This document shows positions 11,201 through 14,200 of a DNA stretch of 64,000 nt, piece by piece (positions within the stretch are counted from its first letter, which is position 1; each line of letters opens with the position of its first letter). Where the stretch lies: the NCBI RefSeq assembly GCF_000026545.1, contig NC_011601.1; one strand, 5' to 3'. Position numbers: made by a program. Source of the DNA: Escherichia coli O127:H6 str. E2348/69 (GTDB lineage: Bacteria; Pseudomonadota; Gammaproteobacteria; Enterobacterales; Enterobacteriaceae).

Positions 11201-14200
11201 TCACCATCACGAACATGGCGAGTATCAGGATGCCCATGCACGAGCCCATGCCAATGACATTAAACGACGCTTTGATGGTAGAGAGGTCACCAACTGGCAA
11301 ATTTTGCTATTTGGCTTAACCGGTGGCCTTATCCCCTGCCCGGCAGCAATTACCGTGCTGTTGATTTGCATTCAGTTGAAAGCCCTGACACTGGGCGCAA
11401 CACTGGTCGTCAGTTTCAGCCTCGGCCTGGCGTTAACGCTTGTCACCGTAGGCGTTGGCGCAGCAATCAGCGTTCAGCAGGTCGCAAAACGCTGGAGCGG
11501 ATTTAACACTCTCGCTAAACGCGCTCCCTATTTTTCCAGTCTGTTGATTGGCTTAGTTGGTGTGTATATGGGCGTACATGGCTTCATGGGCATAATGCGA
11601 TAACTCAATCCTTTAGGCTTGCATGTTATCTTCAGCCCAGGATGATTCTTAAATCAGCTATTTCCGCTGACTCTCTGCTCGCTAAGGATGCTTTTAGGGC
11701 ATCCTTTCATTTACACTTTTTACGAAATCATGGGATCACTAACAAAATATCGCTTGTCAGTTATATTGTATGGCAGGAAAGATATGCGACTGATATTACA
11801 GATCCCCAAAGTGGAGAGTTTATGACCATTAAAAATAAGATGTTGCTGGGTGCGCTTTTGCTGGTTACCAGTGCCGCCTGGGCCGCACCAGCCACCGCGG
11901 GTTCGACCAATACCTCGGGAATTTCTAAGTATGAGTTAAGCAGTTTCATTGCTGACTTTAAGCATTTCAAACCAGGTGACACCGTCCCAGAGATGTACCG
12001 CACCGATGAGTACAACATTAAGCAGTGGCAGTTACGTAACCTGCCCGCGCCTGATGCCGGGACGCACTGGACCTATATGGGTGGCGCGTACGTGTTGATC
12101 AGCGACACCGACGGTAAAATCATTAAAGCCTACGACGGTGAGATTTTTTATCATCGCTAAAAAAAAGCCCCCTCGGAGAGAGCTGTCTCTTGATCAGATC
12201 TCCTGATCAAGAGACTTCATCACCAGGTAACCCTCAACCATATCCTGAAGTCTGAACCAGCCATCCCACATGACTACCCAACCGGGGCGACCGGTGCGTT
12301 TGCTGTCATGCCATCGCCCCAGTTTCGCCAGTTTCAGACAGGCCCATTTCAGTGTCGGCATCTGTGACGGAAGCGGTTTTCCTTCCAGCTTAACCCACAG
12401 CAGTTTCCACTCTGTCGGCGTCAGTATTTTCTCACAGCTGTCATTTTGTGTTTCTTCACTGATACCGCCCTGCCGCAGGCCCAGCACCCGCACCGCGATA
12501 AACGCCTTGATAACCACCATGCGCTCGAGGTTATCCCGGGTCTGCATTCGCAGCGATTCCACACATGTACCACCACTTTTCCACGCCTTGTGGTATTCCT
12601 CTATCAGCCAGCGTCGCTCGTAATGGCTGACGATACGTCGCGCATCGGCGGCACTCGCCACTTTTTCTGACGTCAGCAGATGCCAGCAGGCGCCGTCCTC
12701 TGCCTGCTCCCGGCAACAGACATACGTGAGCGGGAGCGCCTGGCCGCTGTTGTCGGGATTTTTTATGCTGACTTCGCTGTAACTGATGAACATCCGGGCC
12801 TGGCGGGCTGCCCGCCCGCCTTTTTGCATCACATTCAGCGTGTGGCTTCCCGCGGTTGCCAGGACTTCCGGCAGTTCGAAGAGCTTGCCGGGTGCTTCTT
12901 CCAGCCGGCGATTCTGTGCTGCACGCACCACGAAGCGCTGCCCGTGGCTGACTTTATAATGCAGGTAATGCCAGATATCCGCTTCCCGGTCACAGACAGT
13001 GATTACCCGTTTCTGTATCTCCCCCAGCCGTTCGGCCATGCGCTCCGAAGCCTGCTGCCAGCGGTAACTTTCTTTTTCTTCATAGGGACGTTCTTTTCGC
13101 TGGTGCTTAACACCGTAGGTGTCCGTGGCACGACTCCAGCGCTGCTGTTCGATAAGACCGACTGGCAGGGCGCTGTCGGGGGCGTACATCAGGACAGAGT
13201 GAGCCAGCAGCCCGCGCGTCTTCGGGTTAGTGGTGGTATTCCCCAGGTCATCAGATGCCGTACTGTGACTGAAGTTAATGGTGGTGGTGTCTTCCAGCGC
13301 GAGGAGCAGCGGATGAGCCTCACATGCCCTTACAGTGGCGGTAAATCCGGCTTCGGCAATGGCTTGCGGGGACACAGACGGGTTACGTATCAGGCGGTAC
13401 GCACCTTCAACCTGAGCAGTGGACTGGGATGATTTCACAATAGAAAGACCTGCATGCTGAGCGAGAGAAGAGGCCAGTGACACAAGGCGTCGTGTACGAC
13501 GCGGATCACCGAGACGGGCATGTCCAAACTGCTCGTTAGCCCATGAATAACAATCAGAAAGTACCATAACAGACCCGAAGAAAATGAAATATAAGAGAAG
13601 ATCAACGGGTGAGGAAAAAGTTCAAAAAATCGCTGCCGGGGAGGAAGGAAACTACCGGATGGAAAGAGTCCCCCTAAAGCAGACTGACAGACATCACAAA
13701 TCCCCGGGTGGGGATTTGTGTATAAGAGACAGCGGAGAGAGGGGGGAATGCAGACACCTTAATATTTTTATTATTAGCCACTTGCTCGTCTTGCTTGTTA
13801 TTAGTCGTATTTCACGTTGATTAATGCGGTTGCCTCCAGTGCGCCAGATTTAACTTTGTTTGTATCGTAGACGTAGTAACTGGCCGTTATCGGAATTGAA
13901 ACCGTTGTATCTGTAAGTTTTGACTTTGCCGCAATTTCTTTTAAATTTGTATATCCTTTACTGCTGTTAGTGATATTTAAAAGTGTGACTGGCGTACCAT
14001 TACTTTCAAGAATAAATCCTACGCCATTATCTTCCGCACCTTTCAGGATCGTGTTGCTGTTGGTTAACAAGTCAGAACTTGATAAATACACCTGCATTTT
14101 CCGTGATGTTTGATTTTGTTGACCTAATAAATTTTTACAACGCAGAATAATATCCCCTTTTTTACTATTTATTGTTGTTTTGTTACCTGTGGCTGGTAAT

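Follow-up and report, generated by a model that had tools for sequence, protein, structure and literature searches.

The locus between rcnB and yehA of Escherichia coli O127:H6 str. E2348/69 raises the question of which insertion sequence carries the ends of Tn5 next to a transposase that, in a preliminary description of the DNA, appeared to be only distantly related to the Tn5 enzyme. The element occupies positions 12183-13732 (1550 bp) of the window, i.e. the whole stretch of 64,000 nucleotides that was analysed, and the window region is 100% identical to the E2348/69 chromosome. Overall, the evidence is best explained by an intact copy of ISEc13, a member of the IS50 (Tn5-like) subgroup of the IS4 family, which lies with a 9-bp duplication in the yehA terminator of this EPEC strain, and we hold this reading with high confidence.

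The name rests on the protein. An exact-sequence look-up of the 457-aa transposase returned "transposase of ISEc13" and "ISEc13 transposase ... Q0H069_ECOLX", and RefSeq labels the gene "IS4-like element ISEc13 family transposase". Because the protein is identical in sequence to the named ISEc13 transposase and the RefSeq annotation agrees, the element can be called ISEc13, and no evidence contrary to this identification was found. At the protein and annotation level, the element to which ISfinder gave this name, an IS4-family member originally reported from E. coli (UniRef Q0H069_ECOLX), has the same 457-aa transposase and shows no detectable difference from the copy in E2348/69. Near-full ISEc13 copies are present in at least 873 of 5426 complete E. 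coli genomes (about 16%), hundreds of near-identical gene copies in RefSeq are also labelled as ISEc13 family, and other E. coli copies with this label are 97-100% identical to that of E2348/69. Up to 30 places in the E2348/69 chromosome match ISEc13, and the element is found in hundreds of genomes and plasmids. The preliminary description had called it a distinct IS50-group member, which is right insofar as it is not Tn5 itself: the transposase is 41% identical to that of Tn5, far from the near-identity to IS50R (more than 90% of the protein) that was named there as a counter-case, and the whole elements are 52.7% identical in DNA. The implied novelty did not survive, since the protein is already in the databases as that of ISEc13, and the other counter-case named there, a catalogued element, is therefore what was found. 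From this we conclude that ISEc13 is a catalogued and widespread E. coli element, and that the finding is real but ordinary.

The assignment to family and subgroup agrees with the published definitions. The IS4 family is defined by a DDE transposase with a Y-(2)-R-(3)-E-(6)-K (YREK) signature, and its IS50 subgroup by a length of 1350-1550 bp, ends of the form CW------Y---CA-A--W- and a direct repeat of 8-9 bp (PMC2266710, Table 1). ISEc13 measures 1550 bp, has 5'-CT ends and is flanked by a 9-bp repeat, and both of its ends carry C1, T2, T9, C13, A14, A16 and T19, which fits the subgroup consensus. Its residues Y316, R319, E323 and K330 align with Y319, R322, E326 and K333 of Tn5 and thereby provide the YREK signature. 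The family is also recognised by terminal inverted repeats and by target duplications that span roughly one turn of the helix (8-13 bp); in ISEc13, the two 19-bp ends match each other at 14/19 positions and the 9-bp duplication is exact.

This duplication consists of two identical copies of CGGAGAGAG, one at 12174-12182 to the left and one at 13733-13741 to the right of the element. When the element and one repeat were removed in silico, the remaining sequence matched with 100% identity the rcnB-yehA spacer as it stands, uninterrupted, in other strains; this spacer is found in 5336 of the 5426 genomes (with at least 80% of the query covered). At the empty site, the original yehA terminator reads GCATTCCCCCCTCTCTCCGAGGGGGCTTTTTTTT on the minus strand. 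At the occupied site, a terminator scan detected a terminator-like hairpin with a T-run, AGCTCTCTCCGAGGGGGCT-TTTTTTTT, at 12166-12184 (minus strand), directly 3' of the transposase gene, and the structure has been put together anew from the tip of the element, the duplicated target and the former yehA terminator.

The left terminus, CTGTCTCTTGATCAGATCT (12183-12201, plus strand), is distal to the transposase start and contains two GATC sites. It had been described as identical to the inside end of Tn5/IS50, and indeed all 19 positions, both GATC sites included, agree with the inside end of IS50R (L001 1516-1534, plasmid pO86A1); no other match with up to three mismatches occurs in the window, where the chance expectation is 0. 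The right terminus, CTGTCTCTTATACACAAAT (13714-13732, minus strand, given as the reverse complement), is proximal to the transposase start. It matches the IS50 outside end CTGACTCTTATACACAAGT at 17/19 positions, with T4 and A18 in ISEc13 against A4 and G18 in IS50, and also the mosaic end CTGTCTCTTATACACATCT, an engineered hyperactive Tn5 end, at 17/19, with AA against TC at positions 17 and 18, so that the earlier wording of an outside- or mosaic-end-like terminus could be confirmed. The bases shared with the mosaic end are the first 16, including T4 and ATA at positions 10-12. The mosaic end is a chimera of the outside and inside ends, and a Tn5 end carries a DnaA site (PMC3347997); within the right end of ISEc13, TTATACACA at 13717-13725, a box shared with IS50R/Tn5, lies where the Tn5 outside end has its DnaA site. 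The ends of ISEc13 and Tn5 are asymmetric in the same way: the transposase-proximal end reads ATA at positions 10-12, and the far end has GATC at 10-13. In a comparison with IS50 by 19-nt windows, the termini gave 19/19 and, ungapped, 17/19, and the VCDREAD catalytic region was the only other place to reach 17/19 identity.

The transposase gene was confirmed as a minus-strand open reading frame of 457 codons at 12194-13567, with support from Pfam, NCBIfam, a PDB match and the exact-sequence look-up. Its TGA stop codon (12194-12196) lies within the inside end, and the stop codon of IS50 is found at the same place. That the enzyme shares only conserved motif blocks with Tn5 transposase, as was first stated, is too cautious: the two proteins align from end to end with 184 of 446 columns identical, and residues 6-453 match residues 9-469 of the Tn5 transposase chains in the PDB (E = 6e-84). 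The Pfam families Tnp_DNA_bind (70.1 bits, cut-off 24), DDE_Tnp_1 and Dimer_Tnp_Tn5 were matched, the last with 24.1 bits and thus just under its cut-off of 26.7, although the Tn5 alignment still reaches residue 453 of 457; the Tn5-type N-terminal DNA-binding and C-terminal dimerisation domains that mark the IS50 subgroup are therefore both recognised. NCBIfam model NF033590 scores 514 bits, and Tn5 itself is similar with 469. By sequence comparison, the ISEc13 enzyme is thus a full-length homolog of Tn5 transposase, with the same three domains as the IS50R/Tn5 protein (structures 1MUH, 1MUS, 1MM8, 3ECP, 4DM0).

At the level of single residues, D93, D193 and E323 of ISEc13 align with the catalytic D97, D188 and E326 of Tn5, and the remainder of the catalytic set, R210, Y319, R322 and K333 (here and below in Tn5 numbering), is conserved as well; the roles of R210, Y319 and R322 have been described for Tn5 transposase (PMC2566895). 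Also conserved are W298, W323, R26, R27, R30, E58, R62, R65 and N66, with N-terminal recognition residues among them, and the DSKRTG motif. ISEc13 thus keeps each of the three domains, together with most of those mapped Tn5 residues that matter for function. The DNA-contact residues Y237, W125, E54 and E345 are replaced, and ISEc13 lacks the Tn5 beta-clamp loop 246-254 and the loop around residue L372. Since some of the DNA-contact features of Tn5 differ, the handling of the ends by ISEc13 may differ in detail. A further difference from IS50R concerns the Tn5-type inhibitor start at Met56, for which no equivalent was found in the ISEc13 protein: Q52 and V53 (GTT, not a start codon) align there, and the nearest in-frame GTG is codon 44, without a clear ribosome-binding site.

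By homology with Tn5, ISEc13 would move by cut-and-paste transposition, in which two transposase monomers would each bind a 19-bp end via the N-terminal domain and bring the ends together. Cleavage would proceed via a DNA hairpin intermediate, with the DDE and R-YREK residues and a tryptophan stacking on a flipped base, and would be followed by insertion into a target with a 9-bp stagger. Apart from the target duplication, which is shared with IS50R/Tn5, these steps are transferred from Tn5. Unlike IS50 in Tn5, ISEc13 is not known to form a composite transposon.

Nearly the same two ends are found in about 40 relatives with 41-75% protein identity to ISEc13, which come from Rahnella, Photorhabdus, Xenorhabdus, Vibrio, Shewanella, Alteromonas, Aeromonas and others. 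Besides the lineage of ISEc13, at least 7 others have the 19-mer of the Tn5 inside end without any change, and it was located in L003, L009, L012, L041, L047, L048, L059 and L077. Among the IS50-subgroup elements of Rahnella, Vibrio, Shewanella, Alteromonas and Xenorhabdus (L003, L004, L015-L044; 49-75% protein identity to ISEc13), the transposase-proximal end is identical to that of ISEc13 over 19-23 bp, and the elements also share with it a palindrome involving terminal positions 3-11 and a TTGAAC-N15-TGATC block, whereas many of them have CTGTCTCTTGATCACAAGT instead of the exact Tn5 inside end. The right end of ISEc13 equals the consensus of the transposase-proximal end across the clade; T4 together with ATA is the natural state in the ISEc13-type majority, while IS50-like members have A4. 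These comparisons show that, with the mosaic end, engineering has in large part brought back the consensus which the ISEc13-type relatives of Tn5 have by nature, and that IS50 is derived in having A4 and G18 in its outside end.

The inside end of ISEc13 differs from that of IS50R/Tn5 in being part of a perfect palindrome, GTCTCTTGATCAG-ATCTC-CTGATCAAGAGAC (12185-12215), which was recovered by an inverted-repeat search. Its 13-nt arms (12185-12197 and 12203-12215) are 100% complementary and separated by a 5-nt spacer, and among inverted repeats with a short spacer, the 64 kb contain just one more that is perfect over 13 nt or more. In line with the preliminary description, the left arm contains the TGA stop codon of the transposase. 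The outer arm corresponds to inside-end positions 3-15, and the inner arm, which holds a third GATC, encodes the C-terminal K-S-L-D-Q. An inverted copy of terminal positions 3-11 or longer was detected in 27-29 of the ends of 51 distinct relatives, with loops of 4-19 nt.

Such a palindrome could be a mere by-product of the end sequence and the conserved C-terminal K-S-L-D peptide, without a function of its own. This would fit the Photorhabdus subclade, which has a K-S-V-D tail with TCA/TCG and GTT/GTG codons and no palindrome, and the IS50-like subclade, which is entirely without one; likewise, a wobble test of the strand on which the palindrome might act gave 5 A.C against 0 G.U mismatches, which is not significant with about 64% A.C expected from the arm composition and does not tell an RNA-level from a DNA-level role. 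However, in 95% of the 22 elements of the subclade the inner arm uses TCT for Ser and CTT for Leu, compared with a mean of 0.44 over 102 conserved degenerate columns and a gene-wide use of 20% for each codon. Moreover, a change from G to C at end position 15 is accompanied by a change from CAG to CAC in the inner arm despite the resulting replacement of Q by H, and complementarity is kept while the arms vary between 9 and 15 bp and the loops between 4 and 19 nt. We therefore regard the by-product as improbable and consider that the palindrome is apparently under nucleotide-level selection at synonymous sites in the ISEc13/Vibrio subclade. A canonical terminator is ruled out, because no U-tract follows on either strand. 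As its role we tentatively propose a 3'-terminal stem-loop of the transposase mRNA, which might affect stability or make ribosomes pause ahead of the stop codon; that it blocks antisense transcription coming in from the flank seems rather doubtful, and to the same degree so does a DNA-level modulator of inside-end use.

The opposite end of ISEc13 carries a 5' leader that is longer than that of IS50R/Tn5 and contains a hairpin. The transposase ATG is located at element position 166, compared with about 100 in the relatives, and an alignment with the Rahnella, Vibrio and Xenorhabdus elements attributes about 63 bp of ISEc13-specific extra sequence to 13631-13693 (minus strand), the limits of which are ambiguous by a few bases. 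The hairpin CACAAATCCCC-ACCC-GGGGATTTGTG (13695-13720, minus strand) overlaps end positions 13-19. In 23 distinct relatives, a homologous hairpin starts at about position 16 (13-17), and a T-run comes next in nearly all of them; it occurs with 19 different left arms, its stem positions 23-28 covary, and the RNA is more stable in the sense than in the antisense orientation in 13 cases versus 4. These comparisons were made with per-sequence folds anchored on the end; a consensus fold with MAFFT and RNAalifold of the 5' ends of 19 relatives was dropped, as variable loops were misaligned and 5 pairs were recovered. While nearly all of the elements L003, L004 and L015-L044 have an intact terminator (hairpin and 7-9 T), the insertion in ISEc13 splits the ancestral one between hairpin and T-run. 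The hairpin of ISEc13 is accordingly best read as a likely remnant of the clade's intrinsic terminator, which would stop transcription entering from outside at the transposase-proximal end. The insertion also makes a second, imperfect hairpin just upstream of GATTTTTT, and the 5' leader folds with a minimum free energy of -45.5 kcal/mol (z = -2.95). An Rfam scan of window positions 12000-13900 returned no family match at E ≤ 1.

The TTGAAC-N15-TGATC block lies at 13600-13625 (minus strand), with a GATC over the -10 region. Within it, TTTTTTGAAC and TGATC are invariant in an alignment of four diverged elements and recur across the relatives. A scan of the element for the sigma-70 consensus found no promoter, and we propose the block as the putative transposase promoter because of its conservation and by likeness to the T1 promoter of IS50. 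Three GATC sites lie at the inside end (element positions 1525, 1533 and 1538) and one more lies in the block, at position 130, similar to IS50R/Tn5, which has GATC at the inside end and near the promoter; an effect of Dam methylation would be likely at the far end and in the promoter region.

The preliminary description had put its weight on the contrast between conserved ends and a diverged enzyme. The contrast is real, but it is clade-wide and not special to ISEc13; Tn5-like ends are ordinary here, because they are common to the whole group of relatives. The asymmetry of the ends, the stop codon within the far end and the GATC sites are ancestral to the clade and held by selection on end recognition, and with such a history Tn5-like ends beside a 41%-identical enzyme are to be expected. 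The ends might instead stem from a recent recombination or exchange of ends in which IS50 and an IS4-family element unrelated to it took part, as could be suspected from an inside end that is identical at 19/19 positions while the remainder of ISEc13 is just 52.7% identical to IS50. Such a chimera is very unlikely: the shared inside-end identity stops exactly at base 19 with no longer tract in common, the same 19-mer or variants of one to three bases occur in the approximately 40 elements from many genera, the transposase-proximal end of ISEc13 is the clade consensus and not the IS50 version, and the transposase is homologous to that of Tn5 over its whole length. In addition, position 4 of the transposase-proximal end is A or T depending on the subclade, which points to ends congruent with the transposase phylogeny. 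Tn5/IS50 itself, or a mini-Tn5- or Nextera-type assembly artefact, as the first 16 bases shared with the mosaic end of mini-Tn5 and tagmentation adapters might suggest, is refuted, practically beyond doubt, by the 41% protein identity, the proper 9-bp duplication at a chromosomal site, the recurrence of the same insertion in ten independent assemblies and the occurrence of the element in hundreds of genomes and plasmids.

With ISEc13 as an ordinary member of this clade, the suggestion that its ends could be used together with Tn5 tools remains plausible; it is reasonable because the inside end is identical, the other end is 2 positions off and most of the mapped Tn5 residues are kept. The wider proposal, that the ends of the ISEc13 clade are interchangeable with those of Tn5 and that, additionally, the covarying hairpins over both termini form an undescribed insulation device of the IS50 group, is one we would put forward as possible and no more firmly than that. 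As an element, ISEc13 is of little moment, being an insertion sequence already catalogued. The genomes of strains with ISEc13, however, contain stretches identical to the Tn5 inside end and to bases 1-16 of the mosaic end/Nextera adapter, which makes cross-mobilisation with Tn5-based mutagenesis tools conceivable, and adapter trimmers may clip genuine reads at ISEc13 ends. If the ends are interchangeable, resident ISEc13 copies and Tn5 or mini-Tn5 tools could each be mobilised by the other. If the insulation device is real, it would place a terminator against read-in at one end and a coding-sequence palindrome at the other. The terminator and the palindrome, both conserved, provide a simple system in which to study how an insertion sequence keeps host transcription away from its transposase gene and its ends.

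The element at 12183-13732 is ISEc13 and hence already known. Its surroundings match the enteropathogenic E. coli E2348/69 (O127:H6) chromosome with 100% identity, in the local gene order thiD-thiM-rcnR-rcnA-rcnB, element, yehA-yehB. RefSeq labels its minus-strand ORF (12194-13567) "IS4-like element ISEc13 family transposase", and looking up the 457-aa protein by exact sequence gave "transposase of ISEc13" and "ISEc13 transposase n=74 ... Q0H069_ECOLX". At least 873 of the 5426 complete E. coli genomes contain a place where 80% or more of the query is covered, with up to 30 matching places on the E2348/69 chromosome, and the element is also carried by hundreds of plasmids. 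From the named protein, the RefSeq label and these many copies we conclude that the element is catalogued and common; the preliminary description was accurate in what it observed, but the distinct IS that it suggested is ISEc13, an outcome that it had itself given as refuting.

The element is 1550 bp long and flanked on both sides by the 9-bp repeat CGGAGAGAG. Deleting it in silico together with one repeat copy left 204 nt that match other strains with 100% identity, the spacer occurring without interruption in 5336 of the 5426 genomes (≥80% of query covered), and the boundaries are therefore exact. The target was the intrinsic terminator of yehA, which reads GCATTCCCCCCTCTCTCCGAGGGGGCTTTTTTTT on the minus strand (12158-12184 and 13733-13760). 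Since the insertion lies within this terminator and the transposase gene and yehA share one orientation, the yehA terminator has lost its second arm and T-run, and yehA should read into ISEc13. Just past the far end and the transposase gene, the tip of the element, the target duplication and the former T-run together rebuild a terminator-like hairpin. Clean 9-bp repeats also flank several other elements; in many relatives the repeats are shifted by one base against the CTG...CAG boundaries (loci L010, L013, L015, L028, L030, L034-L036, L044, L049, L074 and L076), which points to duplications of 8 bp or to an ambiguity of one base at the tip.

The left terminus, i.e. the end far from the transposase start (12183-12201, CTGTCTCTTGATCAGATCT; a single occurrence in the window, 0 chance matches expected), is the same 19-mer as the inside end of a genuine IS50R from plasmid pO86A1, as had been proposed. 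The right, transposase-proximal terminus reads CTGTCTCTTATACACAAAT inward from 13732 and could likewise be validated as outside/mosaic-end-like, with two differences from each: positions 4 and 18 differ from the IS50 outside end, and positions 17 and 18 from the mosaic end, an engineered chimera of outside and inside ends (PMC3347997). At 13714-13729, 16 genuine genomic bases (CTGTCTCTTATACACA) coincide exactly with the first bases of the Nextera/mosaic-end adapter, and real reads at the ISEc13 ends could be clipped by adapter trimming.

The transposase had been said to share only conserved motif blocks with Tn5 Tnp, which is too weak, since residues 6-453 align with the Tn5 enzyme (E = 6e-84; PDB chains 1MUH, 1MUS, 4DM0). 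Pairwise identity is 41% (184/446 aligned columns) and not >90%, in keeping with a diverged enzyme. Pfam identifies the Tn5-type N-terminal DNA-binding domain and the DDE domain, and the Tn5 dimerisation domain slightly below the cut-off; NCBIfam NF033590 scores 514 bits, versus 469 for Tn5 transposase. Conserved residues (Tn5 numbering) include the DDE triad, R210, Y319 and R322, whose roles are described in PMC2566895, K333, W298 and W323, the N-terminal R26, R27, R30, E58, R62, R65 and N66, and the C-terminal DSKRTG motif, whereas Y237, W125, E54 and E345 are substituted and the loops at 246-254 and around residue 372 are missing. Because Q52 takes the place of Met56, from which the Tn5 inhibitor protein starts, and is followed by V53 (GTT), a Tn5-style inhibitor is unlikely to be made from ISEc13.

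Relatives were collected as a graded series derived from plasmids (Rahnella, 75% identity; Vibrio owensii, 52%; a Shigella remnant), and a one-genome-per-species scan added 80 loci with 30-56% identity. The ISEc13 right end exactly equals the consensus of the transposase-proximal end in about 40 intact elements, which is often followed by CCC; at position 4 the IS50-like subclade has A and the other elements have T, and G18 is limited to IS50 and a few other elements. Far ends follow the pattern CTGTCTCTTGATCA, then C/G, then A and a few variable bases, and the 19-mer of the Tn5 inside end is found again, unchanged, in Rahnella, Photorhabdus, Xenorhabdus, Parashewanella, Aeromonas and two metagenome-assembled genomes (Chromatiales; unclassified Gammaproteobacteria). 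Most members, Tn5 included, have a TGA stop at the same place within this end. In Vibrio sp. 99-8-1 (L020), GAACAC replaces GATCAC and destroys the stop, so that the ORF runs past the element end and would terminate in flanking DNA. IS50 and ISEc13 share 52.7% DNA identity over the whole element and on average 8.6 identities per 19-nt window, and besides the termini (19/19; 17/19 ungapped) the one region with ≥17 is the VCDREAD catalytic region. The ends thus belong to the most constrained parts of the element clade-wide, which is the expectation for transposase binding sites. The noted contrast between Tn5-like ends and a diverged enzyme is real, but it is not peculiar to ISEc13 and is a property of the clade rather than unusual.

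The 13-bp-arm palindrome described at the far end (12185-12215) was confirmed, with 100% complementary 13-nt arms 5 nt apart and the TGA stop (12194-12196) in the outer arm. An inverted copy of terminal positions 3-11 (to 15 in some) lies just inside 27-29 of 51 distinct far ends, with mostly perfect stems of 9-15 bp and loops of 4-19 nt. It is limited to a subclade comprising ISEc13, Rahnella, some Xenorhabdus/Photorhabdus, Vibrio, Photobacterium, Shewanella and Alteromonas elements; among the 51 ends, it is missing from those of IS50-like elements and of a second Photorhabdus group. The inner arm encodes a C-terminal K/M-S-L-D/E, with the Ser and Leu codons TCT and CTT in 95% of 22 elements (~50% protein identity); the mean share of the commonest codon is 0.44 across 102 further conserved degenerate-amino-acid columns, and TCT and CTT each account for 20% gene-wide. 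In contrast, the Photorhabdus group without palindrome keeps K-S-V-D with varying codons. Where far-end position 15 is C for G, the inner arm has CAC for CAG, altering the amino acid. Together, codon fixation, the Photorhabdus contrast and this co-change indicate that the palindrome is under selection on the nucleotide sequence itself.

Among candidate roles we rank an mRNA 3' stem-loop first, followed by a barrier to antisense read-in, a DNA-level effect on far-end use and, last, no role; a wobble-tolerance test of the palindrome revealed no significant strand difference. The variation in the loop speaks against a protein site with fixed geometry, and a canonical terminator is ruled out because no U-tract follows on either strand.

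A truncated relative on the Shigella flexneri virulence plasmid (L006, about 1501-2225; ~60% identical over the C-terminal half), interrupted by or adjoining an IS110-family element, has retained this far end and the 13-bp palindrome, with one base of the loop changed. A second block conserved at synonymous sites, TGG-SAA-GGA-TGG ... TTA-CAA-ACC-ATC-CTT-GAA-GG, lies within the last ~90 nt of the transposase genes of L004 and L024-L044, 30-60 nt upstream of the palindrome in Vibrio/Shewanella/Alteromonas elements; ISEc13 itself does not share this conservation. Just one further perfect palindrome with arms of ≥13 nt and a short spacer occurs in the window, at 18874-18909 (15-nt arms AAAGCTTAAATCATT / AATGATTTAAGCTTT, 6-nt spacer).

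At the transposase-proximal end, 23 distinct relatives carry a hairpin beginning around end position 16 (13-17), usually pairing positions 16-19 (AAAT) with ATTT of the far arm; nearly all of these hairpins are followed by a T-run of 7-9 and then TTGAAC. The left arm occurs in 19 versions, several kinds of pair are seen at stem positions 23-28, and the sense-strand RNA is the more stable in 13 cases versus 4 for the antisense. Hairpin and T-run have the form of a canonical intrinsic terminator, placed such that transcription entering from the flank would stop ahead of the conserved TTGAAC-N15-TGATC block, which we take to be a putative promoter. In ISEc13, an insertion of about 63 bp (13631-13693), absent from the Rahnella, Vibrio and Xenorhabdus relatives, separates the hairpin (13695-13720) from the T-run, creates a second, imperfect hairpin before it and lengthens the leader (ATG at element position 166 versus about 100).

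As a small new observation on a known family, conserved hairpins are present at both termini. Given the clade-wide conservation of the ends, the engineered mosaic end largely brings back the natural T4 and ATA state of ISEc13-type relatives. Cross-use of ISEc13 with Tn5 tools is plausible and, in our judgement, worth one bench experiment.
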